Shown here: positions 3,793 through 29,505 of the stretch, in pieces
Layout of the letters: every line of letters starts with the position of its first letter
Numbering within the stretch: the first letter of the stretch is position 1
The notes under the pieces: generated by a model
Told to the model about the DNA's origin: nothing
Seen by the model: only the letters and a program-made list of their open reading frames with translations
The model's database searches: none
Assembly: GCA_030247525.1 (NCBI GenBank)
Contig: JAOTSC010000002.1
Span: forward strand, 571 to 64,570
DNA: 64,000 nucleotides
Origin: a bacterium
Lineage (GTDB): Bacteria; Electryoneota; JAOADG01
Direction of reading: 5' to 3'
Position numbers and translations under genes: made by a program

Positions 3793-3808
3793 CGGCACAG
3801 CTCTTGCA
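3793..3808 (+). promoter_or_regulatory. Sigma-54-type (-24/-12) promoter-like motif upstream of cytochrome cluster A
   Basis: cGGCAC-agctc-TTGCa with GG-N10-GC spacing, ~90 nt upstream of the GTG start at 3898 (RBS AGGAGG 8 nt upstream of the GTG). Confidence 0.35.
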
Positions 3809-5384: not shown

Positions 5385-5419
5385 TCTTAATCGGCTAAGC
5401 ATAGATAGAACTAAGTATT

Positions 5420-7126
5420 GTGAGTACCTCACCCTCTAATATCAGTTACCATCAGAGGGTACTGAATCAAAAAAAGTGCCACTCTCCAGACCTTTGGGGA
5501 GTGGTTCTTTGCTTGATTACATCATTTTTTTTTTGTGTCACGTCGGGAATTGCTCAGCCACGACTGGCATTTCAAGCCGAACTGGAATCCGGTTATCGGA
5601 CAACCCAGAACTTGAACGACCCTTCTTCAGGAAGTAAAGGCAGCGAATTTCTCCACAATTACGGATTTGGGTTGCGTGGGTATATCCTGTCCCCCAACTT
5701 TATATCCTACCGAGCCGGGATGCGGCTTCACCAATCCAATCGAAAGTATGGTGACACCTGGACGATCACCCGCACACTTGATCTTATTGATTTGAACACT
5801 CACGTTTTCCAAAACCGGCCGCTTTCGTTTAAGTTCAATTATCGACGAACACAATCGGACTTCACTTATGGTCGACAGACCGATCGGAAGTACGATAACT
5901 TTGCCGGAGCCGACATTCTCTATCAAAATCCGATACTCCCGTCGATTCAACTCAGTTATCTATACAACTCCACGGAATCCGATAAATATGGAACTGCCGG
6001 CTCGCACATCAGTTCGATTCGATTACAACGCTACACCGATTTGGCGACTGTTAGCGCATTTTTTCTGGATGAACAGCGCCGCGATTTGATTGGCGGTCGA
6101 TTTGCTCGTCACCAGCAAATCCAATTGGATGGACAAGCGAACCTATTCGACCGAACAACCACCTTGACCTCCAACTTCGAGTATGCCGGTTACAACAACA
6201 ATTACCGTTCCACTCGCTTTGGTACCCGGGTGTTAAGCATGCCCAATCCGAAGAACCGGGTGTTAGCACAATATGGCTTTAACACTACTCAAAGTATTGG
6301 TTCCTCAACATACTCAAATGTGCTCCAAGCGGATTACAAACGATTCTTTACCCCGGAGTTGACTGGAACAGTGCGGGGTAGTCTTTTTCGACAGATGCAA
6401 CTCACGAAAACAACCGAAGAAGAATTTGTCAATCGAAGCGTTAGCGCAGGTTCCGAGTATATTTCAGTAAAGCTGCATAACGACAAAACGATGCGCACGA
6501 TTGCCAACGGATTCTTCGATTACGACAAAAGCTCCACCACCGATGACAGGGTAGTGTTTCGCTCTGTTGGCGCTTACCAGATTCAACAACGGTTTACAAC
6601 AAAGTTTGCTTGGTCGAATATGTACACGCTTTCGGGGCGGGTATCGCGTACCCGACAATTGAATGATTACAACGTAAATCATACGTTTGAAAATCAGATG
6701 TCGTTTACCCCAATTCGCGTCGTTTTGCTTCAAAACATGATTACCTTGAAGGATCAAGAGGGGAGACGGTTCACGCGAGGATTTGAGAATCGTAGCAATC
6801 TTGCGTTACTCTTTTCTCATGGGTTTTCGGTTCGTACCGGCTTGATCACTAATGTAACAGTACAACCAGATTACCGACGGGTTGATTATTGGACGAGCAA
6901 TCTTGGATACGAAATCACAAGAAATCTGGTCTGGTCAGCCCAATCTTCCTACACGTTGGACCGGCAGGTAGATGTTGAATTCGGGAAGGTCGAATCGAGT
7001 CTTCGCTATCAATTGAATGAACTTGCACTAAGTCTTCAAGCTGAAGAAAGCATATCTCAAGATCGAAAAGATTTAACTCTATTCGTGAATGCATCGAGAA
7101 AGATCGGTGGTGGCCTTGCGAGATAA
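5420..7126 (+). CDS. Putative outer-membrane beta-barrel (porin-like) protein of the cytochrome cluster
   Basis: N-terminal hydrophobic signal region (VVLCLITSFFFCVTSGIA|Q). 568 aa rich in Y/N/T/S/Q/R/F with alternating amphipathic segments and no cofactor motifs. Sits between the periplasmic and the large multiheme cytochromes. Fold assignment is inferred, not proven; the ORF does not end in an aromatic residue. Confidence 0.4.
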   Translation: MSTSPSNISYHQRVLNQKKCHSPDLWGVVLCLITSFFFCVTSGIAQPRLAFQAELESGYRTTQNLNDPSSGSKGSEFLHNYGFGLRGYILSPNFISYRAGMRLHQSNRKYGDTWTITRTLDLIDLNTHVFQNRPLSFKFNYRRTQSDFTYGRQTDRKYDNFAGADILYQNPILPSIQLSYLYNSTESDKYGTAGSHISSIRLQRYTDLATVSAFFLDEQRRDLIGGRFARHQQIQLDGQANLFDRTTTLTSNFEYAGYNNNYRSTRFGTRVLSMPNPKNRVLAQYGFNTTQSIGSSTYSNVLQADYKRFFTPELTGTVRGSLFRQMQLTKTTEEEFVNRSVSAGSEYISVKLHNDKTMRTIANGFFDYDKSSTTDDRVVFRSVGAYQIQQRFTTKFAWSNMYTLSGRVSRTRQLNDYNVNHTFENQMSFTPIRVVLLQNMITLKDQEGRRFTRGFENRSNLALLFSHGFSVRTGLITNVTVQPDYRRVDYWTSNLGYEITRNLVWSAQSSYTLDRQVDVEFGKVESSLRYQLNELALSLQAEESISQDRKDLTLFVNASRKIGGGLAR

Positions 7127-8159
7127 GCGACATTTCGCATCGATTGCAATAACCCTGCTGGCCGGAGTACTTGTTATTTCGGTTATCGGATGCTTTTCGT
7201 CTCAAGAAGCAGTAATCCGGCAGCCATTGAGCCCGATAGTATGGCCACAACTACCGGAACAAGCCCGTATCCGTTTCGAGTATTCCTTTCAGTCGCCGGA
7301 AGAGCTTGGTGTAAAAAAGGGATTGTTATCTTGGTTAGCAGGAGATTCTAAACAGAATCAGTTGATACAACCGGTTGCCGTGGCAGTGTCCGATGATGAG
7401 ACGATATATGTGGTTGATGTGACGGGTGTATTGTCGTCTTATCAAGTTGCGACGAAAAAGTACCGTCAACAACGATCAACAAAATCGGGATTACTTCATA
7501 CACCAGTTTCGTTAACGTTGGGAAAAAACGACTCCGTGTATTTAGTTGATTCAGAGAGCAAAAAGATTACAGTTTACACAAACAAACTTCATCCCGTTCG
7601 TGAATTGGAAACCGGGTTAGATCGTCCAGCCGGGATTGTTTGGGATAAGTGGTCGAATCGGCTATGGATTGCCGATGCCAAAGGAAATCGAGTTGTCGCA
7701 TTCAATTTGTCCGGCAAAGTAGTTGCCCAGATAGGGGATGGGCTCGATTCATTAACAAAGTTGAATACCCCAACACATCTATGCATCGACTCATTGGGAA
7801 TTTATGTAACCGATGCCTACAACTTTCAGGTGAAAAAGTATTCATTTGCGGGTACACTGACACAAACGTTTGGTAAGTTAGGTACTAATTCCGGAGCTTT
7901 TTCGCGACCGAAGGGAATTGCCATTGACTCTGACTCGAATCTGTATGTCGTCGATGCATTATTCGGTAATGTGCAAATTTTCAATCCGGAAGGAAAATTG
8001 TTGCTCTTTTTCGGAACAACGGGCGTAACCGAGCCGGGCAACTTCAATCTACCGAACGGAATCAGTATCGATCATCGTAACCGGATCTACGTTGCTGACA
8101 CCCATCACGGGATGATCCAGGTGTTTCAGTATCTGGCAAAACAGGCGACGACAAAATGA
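7089..8159 (+). CDS. NHL-repeat (six-bladed beta-propeller) lipoprotein
   Basis: Lipoprotein-type signal (VISVIGC). Repeated NHL-like units (YVVD/YVTD/YVAD ... G.IQVF). Paralog of 20577..21626 (both end ...VQVFQY). Start uncertain because the ORF overlaps the preceding gene. Confidence 0.7.
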   Translation: MHRERSVVALRDKRHFASIAITLLAGVLVISVIGCFSSQEAVIRQPLSPIVWPQLPEQARIRFEYSFQSPEELGVKKGLLSWLAGDSKQNQLIQPVAVAVSDDETIYVVDVTGVLSSYQVATKKYRQQRSTKSGLLHTPVSLTLGKNDSVYLVDSESKKITVYTNKLHPVRELETGLDRPAGIVWDKWSNRLWIADAKGNRVVAFNLSGKVVAQIGDGLDSLTKLNTPTHLCIDSLGIYVTDAYNFQVKKYSFAGTLTQTFGKLGTNSGAFSRPKGIAIDSDSNLYVVDALFGNVQIFNPEGKLLLFFGTTGVTEPGNFNLPNGISIDHRNRIYVADTHHGMIQVFQYLAKQATTK

Positions 8160-8245
8160 TGAACGACTCGAAAATAAAGTTTCAGACTCGATTTCAAGTT
8201 GTTACTGTAACCGCTGTTTGTTCGTTGTCTTGTGGGGAGGAGCCG

Positions 8246-9949: not shown

Positions 9950-11241
9950 TGGCATTTCGAATGATGAAACGGGTAGTTATCGTTGCAATCACTCTTCTGA
10001 TCGGGTACTTAACTCTATCGGGAGCTGGCTCTGCACCTTTGCTACAGGTGATGTATCCTTCTAAAAGCAAGATGGAAGTGTCGACGCCTCATCATTATCT
10101 CGTGGGAGATGTCGATACGTTTACGGTAACCCGATTGGAATTGTCGCGCACTACCGAGCGGATTGATCAAATGACAGCAAAGTCCGGTTCCATTCGTAGT
10201 GAGTTTGTGAAAAAGGTTAGTGGATTGTTTTCCCGTGATTTCCAGATTACTAATTTTGAAATCACAGTGTTTTCCTTGAAACCGAATACGAAAGAAGTGA
10301 AGCATTCGATTTACTTCCCCGCACAGAATCGAGTCAACCGGGATGCTTTTTGGCAATCACACGAGTTTCAATCGATTTATGAGAAGGTTTTTAAGGATTC
10401 GTTGTTCCGTGGTCTCAATTTTGTCGCGAAAGGTAATCTTGTTTCCCATGTCGAGTTATCAAAACGGCGGTTGCTGGACAAACTCGGTTCAAAATTTGTC
10501 ATGCGGGTCGATTTATCACCCGGACAAAATGATTATACGCTTCGTGCGATGGACAATTCCGACCGAATTTTAGAGGAACACCGTTACTCATTCCTGTATA
10601 AACCAGCAGTGAGCGAAGAAATCAAGAGTTTACCGGGATACGAAGCGGTGAAGTTTCACACGCCGGAACAAGAACAAAACTGTGCCAGTTGCCACCGGAT
10701 GAAACCGAATGCATCGGAGTTGACTTCGAATACGGCAACTGTCCGATTGTGTTATCCTTGCCATGTCTGGGTGACTGCCAGTACCAATGTTCACTATCCC
10801 ATTACCGAATGGAATTGTTTCTACTGTCACAGTGCACCAAAATCCGGTGAATCCGGGTTCGATGTTTCCGATAAACGCAAAAGCGATCAAACCTGTTTTG
10901 AGTGTCACGAAGACCTGAAGGATGCTTTGGCGAAAACCGATTTTCCCCATGCTCCTGCTGGTTCCGGTGATTGTCTTATTTGCCATAACCCGCACGGCAG
11001 CGATTTTCGCGGGATGTCAGTCATGAAGCCGAACGACCTTTGTCTTTCCTGCCATGAGAAGAAATACAGCAAGGATCACCCTGTGATGATGCATCCCGTG
11101 CAGGGCGTTCGTGACAGCAAGTCTCCGAAACAAGAACTATCGTGCGTAAGCTGCCACAATCCGCACTATGGAAGTAATGAGAAACTCTTTTATAAAGCGA
11201 CCGGAACCTTCCAGCTTTGTCAGGAGTGCCACAAAAAATGA
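9949..11241 (+). CDS. Octaheme c-type cytochrome, membrane-anchored or secreted
   Basis: N-terminal hydrophobic anchor/signal. Eight CxxCH motifs (CASCH, CYPCH, CFYCH, CFECH, CLICHNPH, CLSCH, CVSCHNPH, CQECH). Translationally coupled to the upstream cytochrome (ATGA overlap). Confidence 0.8.
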   Translation: MAFRMMKRVVIVAITLLIGYLTLSGAGSAPLLQVMYPSKSKMEVSTPHHYLVGDVDTFTVTRLELSRTTERIDQMTAKSGSIRSEFVKKVSGLFSRDFQITNFEITVFSLKPNTKEVKHSIYFPAQNRVNRDAFWQSHEFQSIYEKVFKDSLFRGLNFVAKGNLVSHVELSKRRLLDKLGSKFVMRVDLSPGQNDYTLRAMDNSDRILEEHRYSFLYKPAVSEEIKSLPGYEAVKFHTPEQEQNCASCHRMKPNASELTSNTATVRLCYPCHVWVTASTNVHYPITEWNCFYCHSAPKSGESGFDVSDKRKSDQTCFECHEDLKDALAKTDFPHAPAGSGDCLICHNPHGSDFRGMSVMKPNDLCLSCHEKKYSKDHPVMMHPVQGVRDSKSPKQELSCVSCHNPHYGSNEKLFYKATGTFQLCQECHKK

Positions 11242-13385
11242 ACGTACGTCTGTACAAACATCGAATTGATCAATGGCGCGACTGTCATTCCGTTCCGCTC
11301 AACTTGTCTATCCTTGTTTTGTTGTTGATTCTCGGTATTGTGCCAGCCAATGCACAAACCCTTTTCGGACAAAGTGGTGCGCTTTCCACTCCTTCCGCTG
11401 ACACCTATCCTGCAGGAAATTTCTCGGTTGGAAGTTACTTTCGTTCTTCATGTTTTCAGCCAGAACGGTTCGACGCTACCAGTGTTTATTTGATTACTGG
11501 ATTAAGTCCAACCACCGAAGCGAGTTTTTCTTTCCCGGGAATTTGGGGTAACAAAACACCACCTGCTCATTTTGAAATCCCGGCGCAAATCAGCTTCAAG
11601 CAAAAAGTGTATTCCTTACCGAAAAACCGCTTCCGCTTTGCGGTAGAAGGAATCATGCAACGCCGCCCGATGGGGGAAGATTCCGTATATGATCAAAGTG
11701 CAAATTGGGGTCTCGGTGTAATAGGCAGCAGTACATTTGGTCGAAATACCTATCATCTGTTTTACAGTCGCATGGTGTCTCGCGGCAACAAGAAGAGTCC
11801 ACAGGATTTTGCCGGCGCTGGATTGGATCGCTCGATTTCCGAGAAATTGGTTTTCAATTCCGATATTTATGTCGTGTCCGAGAATTTCTTTACCCAGCGC
11901 AAAGAAATCACTACGATGATGGGTTTTCGTTATCGGGTGAACTCCTATTTCCATGCAATTGGTGGCGGCGGTGTCGGTATTACCAAGGGTAGCAATGATT
12001 GGCAGTATTTCCTCGGACTTTCGTTTACAACCGACATCAAGAAATCCATCTATACAACCTTAACAGAAACGGTTCCACCCCCACCACCGCAAAGCGATCT
12101 TTACGAACAGCCCGGTTACGACATTGCCGCAGGTATTCCACCACCCGGATCACCGGAAATCATTGAAGCTCCGCATAAGAATGGCAATGGGAATGGTAAT
12201 GGCAACGGTAAGAAGAAACCACCATTTATTTTTACCCGGTTGTTCTTCGATGAGAATTCATTTGAGCTAAGTGAATTCGAGCAACAGAACCTCCAGTTAA
12301 TTTCGCGGGACATTAATAAAATCGGTCGCGACCAGTGTTTAACGGTTATCGGTCACTCCGATCCCACCGGTTCGAATCAAGAGAACTATGCCATTGCGAT
12401 GACTCGTGCGTTAACCGTTGCGGGAAAGATTATCGACAGTGCCGGGTTATCGCCGGAGAGCGTCATTATTGGCGGCGCGGGCGAAGTAATGTTGTCGGAT
12501 CGAAGAACGACATCGAATGCGTTGCAGATGAACCGGCGTGTCGAACTTCGCACCTGTAATCGGTTAAGTGTGCAATTGGACACGATACCTGAAGATAGTT
12601 GTACCATTCGTCAAGCAATTCAATGGCGTTCAGGCTCACACGGTATAGCAAAAGGTTTCAAACAGCTTTCCGTACAAATGGCGAACTGTCTGACGAAACT
12701 GGGCGAATTGCAACCAGAAGAATTCTATATCATCTCACCGAAGTGGGATCCCCAAGTTGATTATCGGACAACGGTTTACCGGACAGCGCTATTTTGGTTG
12801 TACACTGTGCAAACAAAGCAAATAGCACCCGAACGTTGTTTTCTTAAACTTCAGCCCGAATTGAATTTTGCCGGTGAAACTGAGAAGAATGCAGCATCGG
12901 AAGTTGGAATTGACGCACAACTCATTCATGTTGAAACTGGGTCAGACTCAGCGACCGTTCGGATTCGCTTTACCAATCAACAAAAAAGTGTCAAACGCTC
13001 GGTTTATATTGTAGTCACAGCGAATATCGATGGCAAACAAATTTCCGTTGTAGGTGATACACTACCTGAAGATGCGATTCCCGAGTACAATACGGGAAAA
13101 CGGTATCAATTCAAACACCAAATCGAACGAGAGTTTTCATTTCCACTTACTACGCAGGGAAGCAGTAAACCGGACTTCCAAGTGTACTTCTACGATGCAA
13201 ATGGAAAAACCCTTGGTACTACGCAAGCACTAAAATCGGAAGGGTTATCGCCACGATGGGCGAAGCGGTTTGCCGAAGCGCTTCATCTATCCGAAAAGGC
13301 AGTCGAACAACCGAGTGACTTGGAAATCAGTATTCGTAAGTATCGCAGCAACGATGTTAGAGATTTTAATACCGCAGAAAAGTGA
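11238..13385 (+). CDS. OmpA-family outer-membrane protein with NG-repeat and Pro-rich linker
   Basis: Signal peptide (LSILVLLLILGIVPANAQ). Central PPPPP and NGNGNGNGNG low-complexity linker. OmpA/MotB-like C-domain motif (LTVIGHSDPTGSNQENYAIAMTRALTV...NRRVELR). Start taken at the ATG just after the upstream stop. Confidence 0.65.
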   Translation: MNVRLYKHRIDQWRDCHSVPLNLSILVLLLILGIVPANAQTLFGQSGALSTPSADTYPAGNFSVGSYFRSSCFQPERFDATSVYLITGLSPTTEASFSFPGIWGNKTPPAHFEIPAQISFKQKVYSLPKNRFRFAVEGIMQRRPMGEDSVYDQSANWGLGVIGSSTFGRNTYHLFYSRMVSRGNKKSPQDFAGAGLDRSISEKLVFNSDIYVVSENFFTQRKEITTMMGFRYRVNSYFHAIGGGGVGITKGSNDWQYFLGLSFTTDIKKSIYTTLTETVPPPPPQSDLYEQPGYDIAAGIPPPGSPEIIEAPHKNGNGNGNGNGKKKPPFIFTRLFFDENSFELSEFEQQNLQLISRDINKIGRDQCLTVIGHSDPTGSNQENYAIAMTRALTVAGKIIDSAGLSPESVIIGGAGEVMLSDRRTTSNALQMNRRVELRTCNRLSVQLDTIPEDSCTIRQAIQWRSGSHGIAKGFKQLSVQMANCLTKLGELQPEEFYIISPKWDPQVDYRTTVYRTALFWLYTVQTKQIAPERCFLKLQPELNFAGETEKNAASEVGIDAQLIHVETGSDSATVRIRFTNQQKSVKRSVYIVVTANIDGKQISVVGDTLPEDAIPEYNTGKRYQFKHQIEREFSFPLTTQGSSKPDFQVYFYDANGKTLGTTQALKSEGLSPRWAKRFAEALHLSEKAVEQPSDLEISIRKYRSNDVRDFNTAEK

Positions 13386-13392
13386 GGATTGG

Positions 13393-13911
13393 ATGTTTTG
13401 TATCCCCCGTAACTGGATGTTTCGTTTGTTCGCTATTGTTGTTTTAATGATGACTGTAAGTATTGTGATGGCATACCCGCAGGGACATCCGATGGCGGGT
13501 GGTTTAAAGAAGTCGGCGGATAGCACGAAAAGTATGGATTCGATCCCCCAAACACCGCTCCCGACATTCGATAAAGTTTGGATTTCGATTCGGAAAAGTA
13601 ACGGCGACAGTTTAGCGCCAATGGCAATGATGCCGAATGAACTCTATGCACTAAAAGGAACCGATGTCTTGTTACGTGTTACCGATTGCTATAGTCATTG
13701 GATGATTAAAGGAAAAGCGGTAAACTACTCGAAAGAGGAAAAGAACCCGGCGGTGAAAGTCGAGATACTTAAGGGTGAGACGGTATTGTATACCCGTTGG
13801 GCATTCAAAAATATCCCGTTCTTTGGAATGAACAACATGATGGGACACACCCAATCGGGTGATAATCAACTCTATTTCACTTTGACAAAATATGAAGGGA
13901 TGAAGTGGTAA
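13393..13911 (+). CDS. Hypothetical secreted protein, last gene of cytochrome cluster A
   Basis: ORF opens at 13270 but overlaps the upstream gene. ATG 13393 gives a signal-anchor (MFCIPRNWMFRLFAIVVLMMTVSIVMAYP). No recognisable domain. Confidence 0.4.
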   Translation: MFCIPRNWMFRLFAIVVLMMTVSIVMAYPQGHPMAGGLKKSADSTKSMDSIPQTPLPTFDKVWISIRKSNGDSLAPMAMMPNELYALKGTDVLLRVTDCYSHWMIKGKAVNYSKEEKNPAVKVEILKGETVLYTRWAFKNIPFFGMNNMMGHTQSGDNQLYFTLTKYEGMKW

Positions 13912-14096: not shown

Positions 14097-15587
14097 ATGC
14101 TAATAAAAAAATTCAGTTTGCGATACCGGATCATCGCCTCGATGGTCTTAGCAATGACGATACCCATTGCCATATCGAGCTGGATTTCGATGAACGAGCA
14201 CCGGGAGTTAATGATTGCACAACACAAGCGATATCAGCAGTCGCTGATACAACTCGCCTTGAACAGCGTCATGCTGTTTATGGACACCAACCACCCCACT
14301 GAAATCCACAACTCCCTGACAGGACTACGCGATGAAACCCACATCAAATCGATTCGAGTCATTTCCAATGAGGGTATAATTCGTTACAGCTCGAGTCATC
14401 ATGAAATCGGTTCTGCCGTTCCCGATTCGTTGTGGCGGCGCTTATCTAAGAAACCGATTGATATGAAGACGCAAGATGTCATCGATTTCACAAACCAAAC
14501 AATGACACTCGTTATGCGGATACCTAAGGAGCAGCGCTGTTTGGCTTGTCATGACGAACAAAGTCTCAACTTGGGTTACATAAGTATCGTCGACGACATA
14601 TCTAACATAAACACCGAGCTGAATATCCACCTTCGCGAATATTTAGTGTTATCGACCGGGATAATACTTACCGTCGTGTTGACGATATTTGGTATTCACC
14701 TCCGTTTTGTTCAGCGCAACATAAAGCACATGGGCGGCGCAATATCAAAAGTCGAGCGGGGCGATTTTCGCTCGCATATCCCGGTTGACGACTCAGAAGA
14801 GATTGGGACATTAGCGCGCTCGTTCAATGGCATGATCGATCGCTTGAATGTGATGCGCGAAGAGCTGCGGATTGCACACTTGAAGGAATTGGAACGTGCC
14901 GATAAACTTGCCAGTGTCGGGCAGTTGGCTGCGAGCATGGCACATGAGATAAAAAATCCGGTTGCCGGCATCTCCAGTGCGATGCAAGTCTTGATTGAAG
15001 ACCCCGATCAGGACCAGCAAAATGTCCAGATTTTTGAAGAAATCGCCCGTCAAGTAACACGCATTGATCACGCCGTGAATAGTTTGTTGTATTTTGCTCG
15101 ACCGAGTGAACCACGGATGTCATTCACTTCGGTTGACACCCTGTTGGAATTTTCGATGAAACTGATTCTTCAACAGGCACGACAAGCGAATGTAGTTGTC
15201 AAACAGCATGTGGATGAAAACATCCCGGAGTTGTATGTCGATCCCGGACAAATCGAACAAGTTCTGGTGAATCTTTCGATAAATGGCATTCAAGCAATGC
15301 CGTCCGGAGGTACATTAACGATTTCGGTGACATACCAAAAAGAGTCAGACAAGATATTCTTTCGAATCAACGATACCGGAGAAGGTATCCCACCCGAAAA
15401 ATTGAAAGAGATTTTCAAGCCGTTCTACACCTCCAAGCATAAGGGAACCGGTCTTGGACTATCGATTTGCACCGGTATCATTACCCGCCATGGCGGCGAG
15501 TTGTTTGTAGATAGTGTTGTAGGCGCTGGTTCAACATTTTCATTCGTTTTACCACGGGCTTCCCTTGCTTCCCAATCCAAGCTGTAG
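14097..15587 (+). CDS. Sensor histidine kinase with a c-type heme-binding motif (CLACH) in the periplasmic sensor domain
   Basis: Two TM segments flank a ~150-aa periplasmic domain containing CLACHDEQ. HAMP region, HisKA H-box (ASMAHEIKNPVAGI) and HATPase_c G-boxes (NDTGEGI, GTGLGLSI). Confidence 0.8.
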   Translation: MLIKKFSLRYRIIASMVLAMTIPIAISSWISMNEHRELMIAQHKRYQQSLIQLALNSVMLFMDTNHPTEIHNSLTGLRDETHIKSIRVISNEGIIRYSSSHHEIGSAVPDSLWRRLSKKPIDMKTQDVIDFTNQTMTLVMRIPKEQRCLACHDEQSLNLGYISIVDDISNINTELNIHLREYLVLSTGIILTVVLTIFGIHLRFVQRNIKHMGGAISKVERGDFRSHIPVDDSEEIGTLARSFNGMIDRLNVMREELRIAHLKELERADKLASVGQLAASMAHEIKNPVAGISSAMQVLIEDPDQDQQNVQIFEEIARQVTRIDHAVNSLLYFARPSEPRMSFTSVDTLLEFSMKLILQQARQANVVVKQHVDENIPELYVDPGQIEQVLVNLSINGIQAMPSGGTLTISVTYQKESDKIFFRINDTGEGIPPEKLKEIFKPFYTSKHKGTGLGLSICTGIITRHGGELFVDSVVGAGSTFSFVLPRASLASQSKL

Positions 15588-15728
15588 ATAACTTTTCCAG
15601 TAACCCCCTCTTAGCACTTGAATTAGAACCGTTTCTTATTAACTTACATTGCGAATCGGCTATCGAACTCACGATTCTTTTGAATCAGACCGATTAGCAA
15701 TGAAAGAACAATCATACAATTCCATTGC

Positions 15729-17129
15729 TTGTGGACAGGGGTGAGCGTGTCGGATTACAAAATCAAATTGTTGATCATCGACGATGAAAAGTTGATCGGC
15801 TGGTCGTTAGCCAAACAATTTGAAAAGGACGGTTATCAGACTTTTACAGCTTTGTCGGGGGAAGAAGGACTCGAAGTGTTCCGTCGGGAATCCCCGGAAG
15901 TGGTGTTCCTCGATAACCGGTTACCCAAGAAATCGGGATTGGAAGTCCTGAAAGAAATTCGACATCACTCACAATCCACCATCGTCATCTTTATGACTGC
16001 CTACGGATCTACCGAGACCGCCGTCGAAGCTATGAAACTCGGTGCCTACGATTATGTGAACAAACCGTTTCAATACAACGATGTCAATTCAATTGTCGAA
16101 CAAGCAGTTAAGGCAAACAAACTCGACGCGGAAGTTCTGGATATCCGTCGTAAGCTTATGAGCCGCTACGGTTTTTCCAGCATCATCGGCGAATCGAGCC
16201 AGATGATGCACATCTTTGAGATTATCCGAAAGATAACACATTCAGAAGCTTCGACAGTTTTGATTTATGGCGAATCCGGCACCGGCAAGGAAGTAGTCGC
16301 CCGGGCGATTCATTACGAATCAAATCGTTTCCAGAAACCATTTGTAGCGATTAACTGTGCAGCATTACCGGAAACCCTATTAGAGAGCGAGTTGTTTGGC
16401 TATGAGCGTGGTGCATTTACCGACGCCAAGCAGATGAAACGCGGACAGTTCGAGTTGGCGGAGGGGGGCACCCTGCTCCTCGATGAAATCGGTGAACTCA
16501 GTATCCAAATGCAGGTGAAATTACTTAGAGCGTTGGAAACCCGAACATTTAAACGACTGGGTGGTACACAGGACACCAAAATCGATGTCCGGGTCATAGC
16601 AGCGACGAATCGTGACCTTCAAGCAGCAATAGCTGAAGGGCGGTTCCGGCAGGATCTTTATTTTCGTCTGAAAGTCGTCACGGTGCAGCTTCCCCCTCTG
16701 CGAGAACGTCCCGAAGATATTCTGATACTGTCTACTTACTTCATTAATCACTTCAACAGGGAATTTTCCAAAAAAGTTACCGGACTTGATGAACCAGCTC
16801 GATGTGCAATGCTTGCGTACGAGTGGCCGGGAAATGTCCGTGAGCTCAAGAATGTGATTGAACATAGTCTCGTACTCGAAAATGATACCCTCATCCGGTT
16901 AGAGCATCTTCCAATAGAAATCCTTGGCAAAAAGCCTCAAAAAGTAGATCCCAGCGCTGTCCAATTAGAGTTTCCGGTCACCGGATTCCCTTTAGAGGAA
17001 ATCGAGAAGCTGGCAATCCAGAAAGCACTTAACTACGCCAACGGCAACCAATCAAAAGCGGCAGCTTTGCTTTCAGTCACCCGTGACACAATTCGTTACA
17101 AAATGAAGAAGTTCGGATTACTCGATTGA
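15729..17129 (+). CDS. Sigma-54-dependent response regulator (NtrC family: REC + AAA+ + Fis-type HTH)
   Basis: REC domain (LLIIDDE...FLDNRLP...), sigma-54 activator motifs (GESGTGKE, GAFTDA, ESELFGYERGAFT, LLDEIGEL) and C-terminal HTH. Confidence 0.85.
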   Translation: MWTGVSVSDYKIKLLIIDDEKLIGWSLAKQFEKDGYQTFTALSGEEGLEVFRRESPEVVFLDNRLPKKSGLEVLKEIRHHSQSTIVIFMTAYGSTETAVEAMKLGAYDYVNKPFQYNDVNSIVEQAVKANKLDAEVLDIRRKLMSRYGFSSIIGESSQMMHIFEIIRKITHSEASTVLIYGESGTGKEVVARAIHYESNRFQKPFVAINCAALPETLLESELFGYERGAFTDAKQMKRGQFELAEGGTLLLDEIGELSIQMQVKLLRALETRTFKRLGGTQDTKIDVRVIAATNRDLQAAIAEGRFRQDLYFRLKVVTVQLPPLRERPEDILILSTYFINHFNREFSKKVTGLDEPARCAMLAYEWPGNVRELKNVIEHSLVLENDTLIRLEHLPIEILGKKPQKVDPSAVQLEFPVTGFPLEEIEKLAIQKALNYANGNQSKAAALLSVTRDTIRYKMKKFGLLD

Positions 17130-17398: not shown

Positions 17399-17414
17399 TG
17401 GCACACTCTTTGCC
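17399..17414 (+). promoter_or_regulatory. Sigma-54 promoter (TGGCAC-N5-TTGC) upstream of cytochrome cluster B
   Basis: Exact -24/-12 consensus TGGCACactctTTGCc, ~58 nt upstream of ATG 17472 and immediately downstream of the sigma-54 activator gene. Confidence 0.5.
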
Positions 17415-17471
17415 AATCTGTCGGTAGCTAAATAGGCTTTACCAACCCAAGGTATCGAAGGATTCCCAAGA

Positions 17472-18710
17472 ATGTTATATCACTCGAAACTCTCACGCAC
17501 CGGAACGATTTGCATCGTTGCACTCATGGTCGCCGTGACCATCACGTCTGCCCTTGCGCTTCCTTCCTTTATCCATGCCACTCGCACCCTTGACGGGATT
17601 ACCGTCCAGCCGGAGCGGGTCGCTGTAGCTCCCAATGGCATAGTTTATCTGTCCGAACCTCAAAGCAACCGGATCTTAGCTGTTTCGACCGAGGGGATCG
17701 TTGTGGGTTCGATTCCGGTTGCTAATGTAATCGCTGTTGGTGTTCTTCCGAATGGCTCACTACTTGCCAGCCACGGAACCCAAGTCGATTGCTACAATGC
17801 GAATGGCACTTTTCAATTCTCATTGGGTAACGGGATCGGCGAATTCAACAAGGCAGGCGAGATTGCTGTTGCAACCGATGGTTCGATCTATGTGACCGAT
17901 ACCCGCCAACACGTTGTCAAAGTATACCAACCTGATGGAACTTTCCGGTTTGCATTCGGCAGCCGTGGTTCCGCCAACGGACAATTTGTATTTCCGACCG
18001 GCATCGCCCTAAGCGCAAACGAAACCGAAGTTTTTGTTGCCGATCAAGGCAATAGCCGCATCAACGTATATAGCCGCACCGGCAGCTATCTTCGTAGTTT
18101 CGGCCGTGCAACCTATCAAGTCGGTTCAAGCTGGGTATTTGATGGTACGTTTACCCGCGTTCAGGGAATTTCGGTCGATCAACTGAATCGACTCTACATT
18201 TCTGATTTGTATCAGAATGATGTACAAGTTCTTTCAGCCCAAGGCGAATTCTTAGGCAGAATCGTTCCTGGAACCAGTCTTCCCTTCGCTCATCCTGCAG
18301 ATTTGGTCGTAAGTGGTAACCAACTCTATATCCTTTCGACTTTCTCGAATCAAGTGTTCGCATATTCCATCGATGGCGTTACCAGTGTCAACAATCCAGC
18401 CGCCGCGATTGTTTCGCACTTTGCGCTGAATAACAATTATCCCAACCCCTTTAATGGTACGACTCGAATTCCGTTCGCCCTTAAGCAAAACGGTAAAGTA
18501 TCGTTGACCATTTGGAACGTACTGGGTCAGCAAGTCGGTACTCTCATCAATGCGAATATGAATGCGGGATACCATGAAGTCGTTTGGAACACTACCTCCG
18601 GCAGCTACGGCGCAGTGACCAGCGGTGTTTATTATTGCAAACTTTCCGTTGTCGACGAATCCGGAACCTCTCTTTACCAGTCGACCGGTAAAATGCTCTT
18701 TTTGAAGTAA
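17472..18710 (+). CDS. NHL-repeat beta-propeller protein with T9SS C-terminal sorting domain
   Basis: Signal peptide. NHL-like repeats (YVTD..., VFVAD..., YISD...). C-terminal NNYPNPFNGTTRIPFALKQNGKVSLTIWNVLGQQVGTL (T9SS CTD). Confidence 0.7.
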   Translation: MLYHSKLSRTGTICIVALMVAVTITSALALPSFIHATRTLDGITVQPERVAVAPNGIVYLSEPQSNRILAVSTEGIVVGSIPVANVIAVGVLPNGSLLASHGTQVDCYNANGTFQFSLGNGIGEFNKAGEIAVATDGSIYVTDTRQHVVKVYQPDGTFRFAFGSRGSANGQFVFPTGIALSANETEVFVADQGNSRINVYSRTGSYLRSFGRATYQVGSSWVFDGTFTRVQGISVDQLNRLYISDLYQNDVQVLSAQGEFLGRIVPGTSLPFAHPADLVVSGNQLYILSTFSNQVFAYSIDGVTSVNNPAAAIVSHFALNNNYPNPFNGTTRIPFALKQNGKVSLTIWNVLGQQVGTLINANMNAGYHEVVWNTTSGSYGAVTSGVYYCKLSVVDESGTSLYQSTGKMLFLK

Positions 18711-18734
18711 CCGATTTTACTAAGTCTCTACACA

Positions 18735-20381
18735 ATGGAGCGATTCTCAATGTTTTTGAAAAAACATCTTTTCATAGCGATTGCGGTGGTATGCGCATTG
18801 ACTTCTGTTGCCCTTTCGGAAGTAAATGAGCTTCAAGCTCCGCACGATGCGACGAACGCGATGGCATGCGCCAGTTGCCACGTACCTTATAATACAGTGC
18901 CACAACCGGTTCCGGAGAATTGGTTAACCACTTCGGTTTGCCAAAGCTGCCATACCAGCGGTGGTGTTGCTTCCAACATGAAAACTCACGTCGCCAATGC
19001 CGATACCGTATGGTGCCAGACTTGCCACGATCCGCACATGCACCAGACGACGTATCCCCGTTGGTATGTCAAGAATCAGATCATCACTCCGAATAGCGGC
19101 GCTCGTCCGTCGGTAATTCGTGATTCGCTTGACCTGATGCACGGCGCCACTGGTGTGGTTCAACCCTATGATGGTGTTTGTGAAACCTGCCACACTACTA
19201 CCCCGATTTTCCGCAACAATGCTTCGGGTCTGCACCCGACTACTGCTGCGTTGATGACCCATGAAGGTTCGGACAAGTGCACGAACTGTCACCAGCACAA
19301 GAACGGCTTCCAGTCTTCGACCAGTGCAAACACCTGTTTCGCTTGCCACTCCGCTTCCACGAATTCAGTCCGCGATACATCGTTGCATTACACCGCGTCG
19401 AATATGTACAGCCGTTTCGATACGCTGCGCACCACTTCTCACCCGGTTCGCAAGCTCTATGACAATGGACGCTTTGTGTTCGCCAAGGTGGAAGGCAATG
19501 CCGCAATCACGACCAAACTACTTCGTACGCCGTCATGGTTTTCTGGTACATCTTTAACCAGTTCATCCATGATCACCTGTACGGATTGCCACGGTGACTC
19601 TGCCGCAACCGCTTCGAAGGGTATGCATGGCTTGAGCTATCCAATGATGGAAGAGACGACCGCAGTTGCACTTCAGTTGCGTGCCAGTTTACGCCTCGGT
19701 ATGAATCAGGAATACGGTCCCAACTACGATCTGACTGGTAACGCTCTGTGCTATGCTTGCCATACCCCGGAATACTATCGACTGAGCGCTTCTGCTCGTC
19801 CGACCGGTTTCATGCGTTCAGACTCGAATCGTTGGTCCCGTCACTATTCGCACGTCGTGTACCACAATGCGAATACTCAGGAACGTCAGGAAAACTGCGT
19901 GACTTGTCACGGTGTCCATGGTGGCGCCACGACAGCACAAGATACTACGTTCCCAATAAATCGTGCATACGGTCGCACAGGCTTAATCCGTTGGTCGAAG
20001 CAAGCAACCGGTTTGGTGTTTGAACACGGTCAGACTGGTCCGGACTCCATTACCGTTCCAGACTCTACCTTGAAGACTGCGTTAACCGGCGGTTCGCCGC
20101 AAATCGCAACTGGTTATAAATCAGCTGCGTACGGATATTTCAAGTTCAAGAACAAGACCTATGATCGCACAATTCCACCGTTGTTACAAACAATGTGGAA
20201 TCTACGAGATACCGCTATCGTGAACGTAGCTGGTGATACCATTGCTGATTACTACCTTGGCTTCTGCTACGTCAATTGCCATACTGGTAAGGATCTTCCA
20301 ATGGTTGCTGGTGACACAGTTGGTACAAAGCATCCGAATAATCACTACGGTCGCTCTGTTTCCTATCGCATTTGGCGATAA
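18735..20381 (+). CDS. Multiheme c-type cytochrome with 9 CxxCH plus 1 CxxxCH motif
   Basis: Signal peptide. CASCH, CQSCH, CQTCH, CETCH, CTNCH, CFACH, CTDCH, CYACH, CVTCH and C-terminal CYVNCH (CX3CH). Confidence 0.8.
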   Translation: MERFSMFLKKHLFIAIAVVCALTSVALSEVNELQAPHDATNAMACASCHVPYNTVPQPVPENWLTTSVCQSCHTSGGVASNMKTHVANADTVWCQTCHDPHMHQTTYPRWYVKNQIITPNSGARPSVIRDSLDLMHGATGVVQPYDGVCETCHTTTPIFRNNASGLHPTTAALMTHEGSDKCTNCHQHKNGFQSSTSANTCFACHSASTNSVRDTSLHYTASNMYSRFDTLRTTSHPVRKLYDNGRFVFAKVEGNAAITTKLLRTPSWFSGTSLTSSSMITCTDCHGDSAATASKGMHGLSYPMMEETTAVALQLRASLRLGMNQEYGPNYDLTGNALCYACHTPEYYRLSASARPTGFMRSDSNRWSRHYSHVVYHNANTQERQENCVTCHGVHGGATTAQDTTFPINRAYGRTGLIRWSKQATGLVFEHGQTGPDSITVPDSTLKTALTGGSPQIATGYKSAAYGYFKFKNKTYDRTIPPLLQTMWNLRDTAIVNVAGDTIADYYLGFCYVNCHTGKDLPMVAGDTVGTKHPNNHYGRSVSYRIWR

Positions 20382-20412
20382 TTCGCACTACTTTGTTGTA
20401 ACTTTCTAAAAG

Positions 20413-20442
20413 CAGGGTATCGGGCAACCGATACCCTGTTTT
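20413..20442 (+). terminator. Rho-independent terminator after the 10-heme cytochrome gene
   Basis: CAGGGTATCGG-gcaa-CCGATACCCTG followed by TTTTA. Confidence 0.5.
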
Positions 20443-20492
20443 ACATGGATTTGTTCCCACAAGTGATAAAGCAGTATTGATGCAAAGGAACG

Positions 20493-20508
20493 TGGGTGTT
20501 ACATTGCA
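20493..20508 (+). promoter_or_regulatory. Possible sigma-54-type promoter upstream of the NHL lipoprotein gene
   Basis: TGGgtg-ttaca-TTGCA with GG-N10-GC spacing, ~70 nt upstream of ATG 20577. Weaker match than the other two. Confidence 0.3.
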
Positions 20509-20576
20509 GTTCATGTTATGAAGGTATCGTTTCGGAGCTGACGACTCCACATCCATTTTGACGGGAGTTACTCGTA

Positions 20577-21626
20577 ATGAATCCGGCAAAGACTTTTTTG
20601 CTTTTCACCTTGTTTACCTCACTCACACTTTTTTCTGTGGGTTGCGCTCCCAAACAGGCAATCAAACCCGATTTAGTCTGGCCGTCGGCACCGGAAAAGC
20701 CAAGGATAAAATTTCTACGAAGCATCCAAGGTAAGAGCGATTTCACTACATCCAAGATGGATGCTTTCAAGAAGACGTTAGCGGGTGAAACATCATTAGA
20801 ACGGGTAGTGAAGCCCTACGGATTAGCGATTGACAGCAAGGGACGCCTACTTGTAGCTGATGCCGGAAATCGTTGTGTGTTGGTGTTCGATGAGAATGCG
20901 AAGAAATCAGGCGACATCCTCACTTATATCGGAACAAGCGGTGCCGGTCAATTGACAGAGCCGGCAGGAGTTGCGGTCGACGATGAGGATCGAGTTTACG
21001 TGACCGATGTTCGACTAAATGCAGTGTTTGTTTTCGATGCAGAAGGAAACTTACTTCGCAATATCAAAGACACAGTAGCGTTTCAACGTCCTGCAGGTAT
21101 CGCCTATAACAAAGTCACACAGGAGATTATCGTCGTCGATACGAAAGCGTATCACGCGAAATGCTTTCGGAAAGATGGCTCGTTCGTTCGGACGATTGGA
21201 ACAAAAGGAAGCCGGGAAGGTGAGTTTAATCTTCCCAGTAACATCGTTTGTGACACCGATGGGTACATTTATATCGTCGATACAATGAATTTCCGGGTAC
21301 AGGTTTTCGATAAAGATGGTAAATTTGTTTCGACCTTTGGACAAGCGGACAACGTACCCGGCAGTTTTTCGCGGCCACGTGGCATCACTGTCGACAGCGA
21401 TAACAACATCTATGTCGCCGACGCGGCTTTCGATAACATACAGATATTTCAGCGTGACGGGTCATTGCTTTTATACTTCGGGGCGGCTGGTAAAGGGGAT
21501 GGACAGTTTCAGTTACCGGCGGGTTTATGTTTCGATCAAAAAAACCGCTTGTATGTCGCCGACCAGTACAATGGTCGGGTACAGGTTTTCCAATACATCC
21601 AATACAAAGCGGAAACGGGCAAATAG
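20577..21626 (+). CDS. NHL-repeat lipoprotein (paralog of 7089..8159)
   Basis: Lipobox (FSVGC). Six NHL-like repeats. C-terminus ...RVQVFQYIQYKAETGK parallels the paralog. Confidence 0.7.
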   Translation: MNPAKTFLLFTLFTSLTLFSVGCAPKQAIKPDLVWPSAPEKPRIKFLRSIQGKSDFTTSKMDAFKKTLAGETSLERVVKPYGLAIDSKGRLLVADAGNRCVLVFDENAKKSGDILTYIGTSGAGQLTEPAGVAVDDEDRVYVTDVRLNAVFVFDAEGNLLRNIKDTVAFQRPAGIAYNKVTQEIIVVDTKAYHAKCFRKDGSFVRTIGTKGSREGEFNLPSNIVCDTDGYIYIVDTMNFRVQVFDKDGKFVSTFGQADNVPGSFSRPRGITVDSDNNIYVADAAFDNIQIFQRDGSLLLYFGAAGKGDGQFQLPAGLCFDQKNRLYVADQYNGRVQVFQYIQYKAETGK

Positions 21627-21640
21627 TCTTTAGTACTACT

Positions 21641-23017
21641 CTATTCTTCCAGTTTCTTTCGCTGTCGGGTTTGGAATAAGACCACTGTGAGACCGACCAT
21701 TAAAACGATACAACCGGCGTACACAATGGTGGTTCCCGGGTCGTAGGATACGGTAAACACCGATATTTTCGGCGGTCCGGGTATCACGCTGTATTGGTAG
21801 ATTTTCCAACCGTGATACGTTAACGGCGCGTTCATTTCGATGTCATACGCGAAGGAACTCGCCGATCCCTCATTCACCGTCACCTCACTCGAGATCCCTG
21901 CAGCGATTTTGTTGCCGGGATAATACTTCTGATTGACTTTGTTTAGACGTAGTGCAAATCCCAATTCATCGGTGTGGGAAGTCAAACGAAACAGAACATC
22001 GTTGTGGTTAGAAGCGAGTTCCGAATTCTTCTTCATCCAGAATGCATTTGATCGCCCGCCCGTAGGATCTTCGATTCGGAATTTTAATGCAAACTCGCCT
22101 TCGCCGCTTTTTGCCGGGACAAAATTCCTCATCTGCACCGCAAAACTCTCTAAGGAGCGTACCGTAACGGTATTGATACTGTCAAGTACCAGTTTCTGTC
22201 CAAGCGAAATCGGTTGCAGAATGGGCTGTGGCGCATGGACGGCGAGATAGGATAAATCGGATTCGGTTGCAACCAGTAAATAATCTGCAGGCGCTTCCAG
22301 CAGATAGGACATATCCATTTTATCGCGGGGAACAAAGGCGAACAGCAGTTTTTTGCCATTCGGCAACATGACTTCGCCATCCGGTCCATCGCCACACCAC
22401 AATTGCTTATCGACTTCTTTTCCCAGTGCTTCCAACGTTACATCAATGAGCGGTACACCGGTTGGATCGGAGACGTAGGTGAGTTTTCCCACTCCCGATG
22501 GGAGGTAGCGGAGTAGTTCGATCCGGCCTTTATTGAAGGGGAGGTCGATACGTTTCGGTCGTCCGTCTTCTGAGCGCGGAATTGTCTCAAAGCGAAGCGG
22601 TAACACCGCCGAACGACCATCGGATAACTGAACTTCCAGTTGATAAGAGTTGCGGTTGAGTAGCCTTGTTGACTCGCCTTCCGCTAACTTAATTGTTCCC
22701 TCGATACTGTATTCCCGACTGATAACCGCACCAATTAACACGACAAGTACACCGGTATGAGTCATCAACCACCCGATTTGCCCGATCCGATAGGGAAACC
22801 GTTGTACGGTACATGCGATGAGATTGACTGCTAATAAACCCAACAGAAAGTCAAACCAGATGCTATGGTAGATGTCGAGTTGTGCCAGCAAAGTTCCTGC
22901 CGTTGCTTCATACGCAGTCCCGGTCATCATCGCAAGCGCAATGACGACGAGCAGGACAATCGTCAACTGGATCGAGGCAAGAAAGCGATAAATCTTGGCA
23001 AGCAATGTTACTCCCAT
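21641..23017 (-). CDS. ResB/CcsB-like cytochrome c biogenesis (System II) protein
   Basis: ResB-like topology: three N-terminal TM helices, a large periplasmic domain, and a C-terminal TM (TIVYAGCIVLMVGLTVVLFQ). N-terminus resembles ResB (..IVLLVVIALAMMTGT...). No ccsA/resC partner in the window. Confidence 0.5.
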   Translation of the reverse strand: MGVTLLAKIYRFLASIQLTIVLLVVIALAMMTGTAYEATAGTLLAQLDIYHSIWFDFLLGLLAVNLIACTVQRFPYRIGQIGWLMTHTGVLVVLIGAVISREYSIEGTIKLAEGESTRLLNRNSYQLEVQLSDGRSAVLPLRFETIPRSEDGRPKRIDLPFNKGRIELLRYLPSGVGKLTYVSDPTGVPLIDVTLEALGKEVDKQLWCGDGPDGEVMLPNGKKLLFAFVPRDKMDMSYLLEAPADYLLVATESDLSYLAVHAPQPILQPISLGQKLVLDSINTVTVRSLESFAVQMRNFVPAKSGEGEFALKFRIEDPTGGRSNAFWMKKNSELASNHNDVLFRLTSHTDELGFALRLNKVNQKYYPGNKIAAGISSEVTVNEGSASSFAYDIEMNAPLTYHGWKIYQYSVIPGPPKISVFTVSYDPGTTIVYAGCIVLMVGLTVVLFQTRQRKKLEE

Positions 23018-28674: not shown

Positions 28675-29505
28675 ATGCGAATAGTAATTGCATTATTTTC
28701 AATTCTTCTCATGATTAATATATTGCATGCCCAACCGACCCTCGAGTGGACATCGCCGACTGTACCGAGTACTGGGCAAGCGGGCTGGTTCTATTATACC
28801 GTCGATACATGGCGGTTCTATACGATGGATGGCACGAATCTACGGGTGATGTCCGGCCCGGAATCGAGTACTCCCGCCTTAACGATTCCGTTGCAGACCG
28901 GGGAGTACAACGCCTACTCCTACATCGAAGTAACCGGCGACGGGATATACGACATCGTGATTTTCAAATATGTGACAGTAGGCAGTAACATCAAGTTCTC
29001 ACTCCGAATCGTCGATCAAACGAATGGCGCGAATGTCATTACGTTCGACAATGCCAATTACTCCTATTTATTGAATACCGTCCTCGACATCGATCACGAT
29101 GGCTTCACCGAATTGGTAGTGGAACGTTCCCCCTTTCCCCCGGCTTCCCCTGACAATTTCAATTTTCTGGTCTACCAAACCAACGGGACTTCGGTCGAGC
29201 AACGTGAGATTCCCACTTTGCCACAGCAAATCGGTCTCGCGAATTATCCTAATCCCTTCAATCCTGCAACCAAGATTACTCTCACGCTGTCGCAACCGGC
29301 GTTGTCACTAACCGCCACGATTTACGATGTCAGTGGTAGGCGGATCAAACAACTGATGCTGGGACAACGGGTAGCAGGTACACACGAGATTGGGTGGGAT
29401 GGTACCGACGAGAACAACCTCCCGGTCGTCAGCGGTACCTACTTTTGCCAAATCAGTGAGGGAACTACTACCTTACAGGCACGTATGATGCAACTTGTTC
29501 GGTAG
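28675..29505 (+). CDS. Secreted FG-GAP-like protein with T9SS C-terminal sorting domain
   Basis: Signal peptide. GDGIYDIVIF / DHDGFTELVV FG-GAP-like motifs. C-terminal NYPNPFNPATKITLTL...IYDVSGRRIKQL (T9SS CTD). Confidence 0.6.
   Translation: MRIVIALFSILLMINILHAQPTLEWTSPTVPSTGQAGWFYYTVDTWRFYTMDGTNLRVMSGPESSTPALTIPLQTGEYNAYSYIEVTGDGIYDIVIFKYVTVGSNIKFSLRIVDQTNGANVITFDNANYSYLLNTVLDIDHDGFTELVVERSPFPPASPDNFNFLVYQTNGTSVEQREIPTLPQQIGLANYPNPFNPATKITLTLSQPALSLTATIYDVSGRRIKQLMLGQRVAGTHEIGWDGTDENNLPVVSGTYFCQISEGTTTLQARMMQLVR

Follow-up and report, generated by a model that had tools for sequence, protein, structure and literature searches.

What do NHL beta-propeller proteins do next to multiheme cytochromes, and what does it mean when one of them bears a secretion tag? 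These questions are raised by a 64-kb stretch of contig JAOTSC010000002.1 (the window), in which NHL_CTD, a propeller gene ending in the C-terminal domain (CTD) of type IX secretion system (T9SS) cargo, is followed by genes for a multiheme cytochrome (cyt10) and a second propeller (NHL_B), and the three converge on a ResB-like gene for cytochrome c biogenesis. All four open reading frames (ORFs) were found in the window (Table 1). We hold with moderate confidence that the segment 17399-21626 is a sigma-54-driven operon of NHL_CTD, cyt10 and NHL_B, and that it is part of an island of the OmcE nanowire type in which the propellers would serve as scaffolds. The host is probably an uncultured, T9SS-using bacterium of the Fibrobacterota-Chlorobiota-Bacteroidota (FCB) group.

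The propeller NHL_CTD and the adjoining cytochrome

NHL_CTD matched the Pfam NHL family with 56 bits. Its C-terminus scored 27.1 bits against the T9SS sorting domain TIGR04183, which is above the cut-off of 23, and 26.9 bits against Pfam PF18962, 0.1 bit short of the cut-off of 27. The last ~95 amino acids can be aligned with those of five other CTD proteins encoded in the window, with which they have in common an NYPNPFN motif, a G-x-Y motif and a K-x-x-L-x-K end; the CTD motifs are retained in all NHL_CTD orthologs. The hydrophobic N-terminus, which ends ...SALA/LP, is a Sec signal peptide.

The AlphaFold2 model of NHL_CTD, built with 20 homologs, had a predicted local distance difference test (pLDDT) score of 82.9. 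In the model a signal helix (residues 9-25) precedes a propeller (34-300) whose strand count is consistent with six blades, and a low-confidence, presumably disordered linker leads to a beta-sandwich (313-409). When the model was compared with the PDB by Foldseek, the top matches were the NHL domains of TRIM2, TRIM71 and Thin (TM-score 0.80-0.85). An N-terminal Sec signal combined with a C-terminal beta-sandwich of ~90 amino acids that carries the family motifs is also the architecture of the T9SS type-A CTD cargo of Bacteroidota (TIGR04183 / PF18962), from which NHL_CTD differs in its passenger, a propeller encoded within an extracellular-electron-transfer operon. As judged from its sequence, NHL_CTD carries a genuine T9SS type-A CTD, and its export is predicted. 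The original prediction had placed a T9SS domain on this protein and lipoboxes on the other two propellers of the window, and the TIGR04183 match, the CTD alignment and the lipobox cysteines bear this out.

The five other T9SS-CTD ORFs of the window lie at 5-1540, 28675-29505, 34160-36028, 48304-50445 and 61281-63947(-). Six CTD ORFs per 64 kb represent an unusually dense T9SS cargo and point indirectly to a T9SS in the host; the passengers of the other five are mostly without a Pfam match.

The cyt10 gene begins 24 bp past NHL_CTD, NCBI placing its start codon 5 codons further downstream. The protein has a Sec signal peptide and ten heme attachment sites (nine CXXCH and one CX3CH), and we found in it no lipobox, no CTD and no recognisable export signal other than Sec. 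The CX3CH site is C-terminal (CYVNCH, aa 511-516, nt 20265-20282) and is kept, as C[YF]V[NK]CH, in the cyt10 proteins of the window, L001, L007 and L017/L097 (L numbers designate the related loci). A CX3CH or CX4CH motif occurs within the last 90 amino acids of 31 of the 43 large OmcE-domain cytochromes found in related loci.

NHL_CTD orthologs with a true CTD occur in nine lineages: the window, L001, L003/4/18, L007, L019 (a Zixibacteria metagenome-assembled genome, MAG), L024 (an Ignavibacteriae MAG), L075, L097 and L098. The gene that follows after a gap of 12-50 bp encodes, in each of the nine, a cytochrome with the N-terminal domain of cyt10. These cytochromes comprise 520-805 amino acids and 10-17 hemes, and they have the six-heme N-domain in common. 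The domain is rare: a search of 1.84 billion representative proteins gave only 55 relatives at E<=1e-10. By sequence, cyt10 has no PDB relative. The possibility that the N-domain is OmcE-like was considered and rejected, as the profile-profile comparison gave a probability of 45% over just 21 columns.

In distant lineages cyt10 is conserved only over ~200 N-terminal amino acids, and its C-terminal part and heme number vary. The propellers are better conserved, with 51-58% (NHL_B) and 39-52% (NHL_CTD) identity to their orthologs. Outer-surface cytochromes have been reported to be the fastest evolving, and the variable C-terminus of cyt10 beside conserved propellers fits this. Weak NHL relatives without a CTD precede cytochromes with the cyt10 N-domain in Kiloniellales and Thermodesulfobacteriota MAGs (L028, L058, L063), so that the CTD is seen only in T9SS-type lineages. 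NHL_CTD and cyt10 are an accessory pair of the island described below. Among the ~100 loci examined, no propeller had a heme motif and no cytochrome had a CTD. Full-text searches of the literature for papers that treat T9SS (type IX secretion) along with multiheme cytochromes returned none.

The surrounding OmcE-type island

Some 12 kb upstream of NHL_B lies a group of genes, cluster A, in which the original prediction had noted an NHL gene paired with a cytochrome gene. Both genes are real: one encodes the propeller lipoprotein NHL_A, the other a cytochrome with 11+1 heme sites. The cluster begins with two OmcE-like genes. The first matched the Geobacter OmcE filament (PDB 7TFS) with an E value of 2.8e-33 and a second filament-forming homolog (9YUQ) with 1e-25, in both cases over the full length. 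The four CXXCH motifs and His27, His54, His146 and His188 were invariant in 7 sequences including those of both window genes, which are 40% identical to one another. The two genes are thus candidates for nanowire subunits, filament formation being predicted from these sequence features. In the 12-site cytochrome the first ~200 mature residues are OmcE-like (32-38% identical to the tetrahemes) and are followed by 8 further heme sites; the protein could be a base or adaptor subunit of the filament.

The protein encoded between the OmcE-like genes and NHL_A had no Pfam match, and an iterative hidden Markov model (HMM) search retrieved proteins of 560-740 amino acids in 52 related loci, where their genes hold the corresponding position. 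Many of these relatives end in ..RRF, ..RSF or ..RPF, which resembles the outer-membrane beta-signal; in the clade of the window a short extension reaches past the motif.

NHL_B and NHL_A matched the Pfam NHL family with 125 and 88 bits, respectively. The cysteine of the 'FSVGC' sequence in NHL_B is invariant in four orthologs, which marks NHL_B as a lipoprotein, and NHL_A likewise has a lipobox cysteine, so the island encodes two propeller lipoproteins. The three propellers of the window are 25-33% identical mutually, as against the above identities of NHL_B and NHL_CTD to their own orthologs and 37% for NHL_A. They therefore represent three separate orthologous groups. Right behind the lipobox or signal peptide, NHL_A, NHL_B and most family members have the motif VWPxxPExxRIxY(L), in the NHL_B family as VWPxxPExPRI; it is absent from NHL_CTD.

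The NHL_B alignment was scanned against one genome per species, which yielded at least 567 genome loci with relatives. The 80 best NHL_B-family loci were then analysed by ORF calling and HMM searches. Their labels span many phyla (Nitrospirota, Acidobacteriota, Gamma- and Alphaproteobacteria, Desulfuromonadales, Aquificota, Bacillota, Planctomycetia, Ignavibacteria, Zixibacteria and Calditrichaceae). Within 6 kb of the NHL_B-family gene, a multiheme or OmcE-like ORF was found in 75 of the 80 loci, an OmcE-like ORF in 72 and a second NHL gene in 48; the loci without a cytochrome (5/80) were mostly contigs shorter than 5 kb. A member of the barrel family was present in 51 loci. The NHL_B-family gene is directly followed by an OmcE-domain gene in 68 of the 80 loci (46 if only the forms with 4-7 hemes are counted), and an OmcE-domain protein with at least 8 hemes follows an NHL gene in 37. 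OmcE-like genes are directly preceded by NHL_B relatives with 37-41% identity in Desulfuromonadales MAGs (L074 and L081). The simplest reading of these linkage counts is that NHL_B is the cluster's canonical second propeller lipoprotein, which a rearrangement in the lineage of the window has shifted ~12 kb past the core. The propeller lipoproteins, OmcE-like subunits and barrel-family protein are members of a widespread cluster type.

The genes of the island form a continuous series in a marine MAG (L004/L018), in the order NHL_CTD, two cyt10-type cytochromes, a small response regulator, NHL_B, OmcE, OmcE, barrel-family protein, NHL_A, 12-heme cytochrome, 8-heme cytochrome and OmpA-like protein. 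In the closed 4.34-Mb genome of a relative (ENA ERZ21878129 contig_1) the loci L014 and L001 are 4 kb apart, and the gene order of the window recurs. In L014, at 3868-11392 and about 8 kb ahead of the OmcE genes, lie genes for an 870-aa CbcL-like fusion of a 19-heme cytochrome with a cytochrome b (Ni_hydr_CYTB), a 419-aa protein, three small cytochromes and a ResB ortholog. This CbcL-like cluster, which the window lacks, is likely to provide the entry to the pathway at the inner membrane.

The original prediction had described the pairing of NHL and cytochrome genes as a module that recurs. The linkage itself is confirmed, and the co-conservation of NHL genes with cytochromes is found in the relatives of both NHL_B and NHL_CTD, so that the condition named as refuting the prediction, a lack of such co-conservation, clearly did not arise. 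An independent second module is not what we see, as the propellers fall into three orthologous groups and the genes form one continuous cluster in L004/L018. The interpretation was thus right in spirit and in part supported, and its framing was incomplete, since it missed the OmcE-type nature of cluster A. Taken as a whole, cluster A (3793-13385), the kinase and activator genes (14097-17129) and the operon 17399-21626 appear, on balance, to be one Uet-like island for extracellular electron transfer through OmcE nanowires. The heme-attachment motifs encoded across it number 39.

The box TGGCACACTCTTTGC, upstream of NHL_CTD, is the sole perfect match to TGGCAC-N5-TTGC in the 64 kb, and a sigma-54 box with 0-1 mismatch lies 40-70 nt before the NHL_CTD ortholog in L001, L007, L097, L019 and L098, that is, in six lineages with the window. 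Upstream of the OmcE-like genes, CGGCACAGCTCTTGC is a one-mismatch sigma-54 box; in L014, L004, L024 and L075 such boxes likewise stand before the omcE-like gene or the first gene of the cluster. The genes of a sensor kinase and a sigma-54-dependent response regulator are located immediately upstream of the operon and are kept in relatives. The regulator is 59-69% identical in L001, L003 and L007, where its gene is directly upstream of NHL_CTD. The CxxCH motif in the periplasmic loop of the kinase (aa 148) is invariant in six lineages, which suggests that the kinase is a putative redox or ligand sensor with covalently bound heme c. Scans for sigma-70 promoters and intrinsic terminators between 17.1 and 23.4 kb gave fewer sites than shuffled controls.

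Table 1. Features of the operon, its regulatory genes and the rest of the island, with window coordinates
Feature	Position	Strand	Description or basis
Sigma-54 (-24/-12) promoter box TGGCACACTCTTTGC	17399..17413	+	59 nt before NHL_CTD start codon
NHL_CTD	17472..18710	+	412 aa; Sec signal peptide ~aa 1-30, six-bladed NHL propeller aa 34-300, linker, predicted T9SS type-A CTD aa 313-412 (nt 18408-18710)
cyt10	18735..20381	+	548 aa; secreted multiheme cytochrome, 10 sites; six-heme N-domain aa 29-205
NHL_B	20577..21626	+	349 aa; six-bladed NHL propeller lipoprotein, lipobox Cys23
ResB/CcsB-like System II cytochrome c biogenesis protein	21641..23017	-	458 aa; Pfam ResB match
Sensor histidine kinase with periplasmic CxxCH	14097..15587	+	Domain matches; six-lineage comparison
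Sigma-54-dependent response regulator (REC, AAA+, Fis-type helix-turn-helix)	15729..17129	+	Domain matches
Second sigma-54-like box CGGCACAGCTCTTGC	3793..3807	+	91 nt before first OmcE-like gene
Two OmcE-like tetraheme cytochromes	3898-4548 and 4632-5384	+	Structure-database sequence match, invariant ligands
Putative outer-membrane barrel-family protein	5420..7126	+	568 aa; iterative HMM family
NHL_A	7089..8159	+	Propeller lipoprotein of core cluster; NHL Pfam match, lipobox
12-site cytochrome with OmcE-like N-terminal module	8156/8246-9949	+	Likely start 8246; 11+1 heme sites
8-heme cytochrome	9949-11241	+	Heme-site count
OmpA-like protein	11217-13385		722 aa; after 8-heme cytochrome

Behind the OmpA-like gene a small protein of 167-213 amino acids is encoded at 13270-13911. 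The two genes keep their position in L001 and L097, and the proteins are 29% and 52% identical in L001.

Linkage between NHL and cytochrome genes has already been published. The smallest omcE clusters are described as always encoding OmcE, a large beta-barrel protein and two each of multiheme cytochromes and beta-propeller lipoproteins, and in Desulfuromonadia resB is found near them (bioRxiv 10.1101/2025.10.22.684050). The uet cluster of Tenderiales encodes a tetraheme cytochrome (UetA), a barrel (UetC), two NHL proteins (UetH and UetI) and an undecaheme cytochrome (UetJ), and ccsA and ccsB come after it (bioRxiv 10.1101/2022.05.06.490989). NHL genes have been reported in cytochrome clusters of Desulfovibrio ferrophilus (PMC9769857), and they are also present in those of Dethiobacter.

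Among the known systems closest to the island is the omcE cluster of Desulfuromonadia, as represented by the OmcE proteins of G. sulfurreducens (7TFS) and Desulfuromonas soudanensis. Both have OmcE homologs with four CXXCH motifs and four distal histidines, and the putative barrel-family protein, two propeller lipoproteins and at least two multiheme cytochromes (8156-9949 and 9949-11241) make up the published smallest set, with resB close by. The two differ in the host, which here uses T9SS and probably belongs to the FCB group, whereas the preprint names five other phyla. They also differ in that the island has two OmcE paralogs, has NHL_B ~12 kb away behind a two-component system, possesses an additional CTD-tagged propeller with cyt10, contains no glycosylation genes, and has a ResB gene without CcsA alongside. 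The uet cluster ('Ca. Tenderia electrophaga', Tenderiales and some Gallionella) is similar by gene content only: a tetraheme cytochrome, a large putative barrel, two NHL proteins, a UetJ-like cytochrome with 11 CXXCH (8156-9949) and an adjoining System II gene. Unlike uet, the island has no 3-heme ORFs (triheme c7, UetDEG) between 3.8 and 23 kb, its scanned ORFs gave no Pfam match to a peptidyl-prolyl isomerase (UetB) or a cupredoxin (UetF), for which no targeted search was made, ResB occurs alone without ccsA, and the T9SS-tagged propeller and cyt10 are without a described Uet counterpart. Desulfovibrio ferrophilus IS5 (DFE_0448-0451 and DFE_0461-0465) is alike by description only, in that outer-surface multiheme cytochromes are encoded together with the NHL propellers DFE_0451 and DFE_0463; that organism belongs to the Desulfobacterota and lacks T9SS.

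The ResB-like gene

The original prediction had also named, correctly, a ResB-like heme-attachment protein without an adjacent CcsA. In the profile search the protein matched Pfam ResB (PF05140) with 91.7 bits (E 6e-26), and no WWD motif of the CcsA type was detected in the six frames of the window, nor in L001, L014 and L097. The gene is convergent with NHL_B, and 14 bp separate the stop codons. When the protein was compared with the CcsBA structure 7S9Y, only the CcsB half matched, in two blocks (E 1e-26). Three transmembrane segments are N-terminal (residues 12-30, 49-67 and 81-99) and one is C-terminal (430-448), with a large loop between them. The transmembrane histidine His87 is conserved and aligns with a histidine of 7S9Y and 25VK.

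In the match to the CcsB half, in topology and in the transmembrane histidine the protein thus resembles the CcsB/ResB of System II, and on these sequence features it is a credible CcsB. It differs from CcsBA in being short (458 aa), in the lack of a CcsA in the 64 kb, and in being a conserved orphan in its clade that is duplicated in a relative. In the closed 4.34-Mb genome the true ortholog is 43% identical and is encoded within the CbcL-like cluster. A second ResB-like gene of that genome (L001, 13868-15190(-)) encodes a paralog with 28% identity in which Gln replaces the transmembrane histidine, possibly a derivative that does not bind heme. A canonical ResB+CcsA pair was found in L016. 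We rejected ResB as a general part of the cluster type, since a ResB match occurred in only 2 of the 80 loci, in one of them with an adjacent CcsA. To tie the ResB-like gene to the non-canonical heme motifs would be speculation.

Possible roles of the propellers

The propellers have no heme motifs and are therefore regarded as accessory partners rather than electron carriers. According to the scheme that we favour, the periplasmic heme-c sensor kinase would act on the sigma-54 regulator, which would switch on both operons. The cytochromes would be exported by Sec and receive their heme in the periplasm, where ResB/CcsB may contribute with a CcsA encoded elsewhere. NHL_A and NHL_B would be non-redox scaffolds or assembly factors of the outer membrane, with whose help the OmcE-like filament and the large cytochromes are mounted on the barrel protein or assembled there. 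NHL_CTD would be carried across the outer membrane by T9SS, lose its CTD, remain on or near the surface, and dock or organise cyt10 there. We also put forward, tentatively and as a rather unlikely extension, that T9SS has been recruited into extracellular electron transfer in FCB-group bacteria: exported NHL_CTD might then anchor the cyt10-type cytochrome and/or the OmcE-like filaments, or it might carry the CTD-less cyt10 across the outer membrane as a complex pre-formed in the periplasm ('piggy-back' export of the holo-cytochrome).

Several observations weigh against the scaffold reading. The 80 loci, 75 of them with a neighbouring cytochrome, are the best matches of one orthologous family, so that the statistic is not valid for NHL proteins in general. 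Distant NHL homologs, 27-30% identical to NHL_CTD, are not beside cytochromes: among these control loci, L010/L011 belong to a polysaccharide locus, and cytochromes are absent from L012/L013. The barrel fold is putative, as the single-sequence AlphaFold2 model of the barrel-family protein was uninformative (pLDDT 29.8). The rarity of ResB among the 80 loci means that its position here may carry little functional meaning. We infer the scaffold or docking role of the propellers from linkage and from the absence of redox motifs, and the 'mineral or partner docking' of the original prediction is likewise drawn from linkage. Finally, cyt10 has neither a CTD nor a lipobox, and if it is periplasmic, NHL_CTD exposed at the surface could not stay its partner. 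The lack of an evident outer-membrane route for cyt10 leaves room for a stand-alone surface module, for a transient role in assembly and for piggy-back export.

As a stand-alone module, NHL_CTD and cyt10 would form a terminal reductase or oxidase of the surface, the propeller binding the substrate (a mineral surface, metal chelate or humic material) and cyt10 delivering or accepting the electrons; the pair would be co-regulated with the filament and functionally independent of it. Such independence agrees with the absence of the pair from most of the 80 OmcE-type loci, with its location on either side of the core or in divergent orientation (L075), with its own sigma-54 promoter, and with a heme count that ranges from 10 to 17 at a constant N-domain. 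However, the pair stands beside OmcE-type genes in each of the nine lineages with enough sequence, no substrate-binding feature was identified in the propeller, and cyt10 would have to reach the surface with no export signal beyond Sec; we consider this explanation improbable. Somewhat less probable still is that the propellers are not stable partners of the large cytochromes but transient, chaperone- or usher-like factors needed for the secretion and polymerisation of OmcE-like subunits by way of the barrel protein, the CTD form acting at the outer face. The commonest gene order, with the NHL lipoprotein directly before an OmcE-like gene, speaks for such a role, whereas NHL_CTD always adjoins genes of the cyt10 type and not OmcE-like genes, and the cyt10 N-domain is not OmcE-like by profile comparison. 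The weak Pfam matches of the propellers to SGL, arylesterase and lactonase families could be taken to mean that they are lactonase-, SGL- or hydrolase-type enzymes with no relation to the cytochromes, near which they lie by chance. These matches reflect generic propeller similarity, and co-occurrence in 75/80 loci and 9/9 lineages over many phyla, the gaps of 12-50 bp and the common sigma-54 promoter effectively refute this explanation.

For the ResB-like gene the balance is closer. It may well be, at slightly less than even chances, a housekeeping CcsB gene which is apart from ccsA as in cyanobacteria and plastids, and which adjoins the operon by accident. The retained CcsB topology and transmembrane histidine, the location on the opposite strand with its own upstream region, and the lack of ResB in most OmcE-type loci would all suit this. 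On the other hand, three lineages with neighbouring genes of only 50-60% identity have a ResB-like gene in the same place, convergent with NHL_B, namely the window, L097/L017 (an ortholog, 39% identical) and L001 (the degenerate paralog). Moreover, the island of the 4.34-Mb genome contains two ResB-like genes, one after the CbcL-like cluster and one degenerate, and complete ResB+CcsA pairs lie inside other OmcE or Uet clusters (L063, L085 and Tenderiales).

As far as the literature can be searched, the T9SS-tagged propeller with its rare cytochrome family, the regulon of sigma-54 and a heme sensor, the conserved orphan ResB and the occurrence of the cluster type in FCB-group MAGs appear to be new. 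The clusters of the OmcE type shown here for FCB-group MAGs (Ignavibacteria, Zixibacteria, Bacteroidetes-labelled bins and Calditrichaceae) are outside the five phyla of the preprint, and a simple circuit is indicated for such islands, in which conserved -24/-12 boxes combine with a heme-c sensor kinase and a sigma-54 activator. The export, mounting and anchoring of cytochrome nanowires and of large outer-surface cytochromes are a current question in the literature, and the propellers are conserved hallmark genes of these systems. T9SS-using lineages present a natural experiment in this respect, as one propeller has gained a secretion tag that would place it outside the outer membrane. The tag suggests that at least this propeller works at the cell surface, and it offers a testable handle on the role of the propellers.

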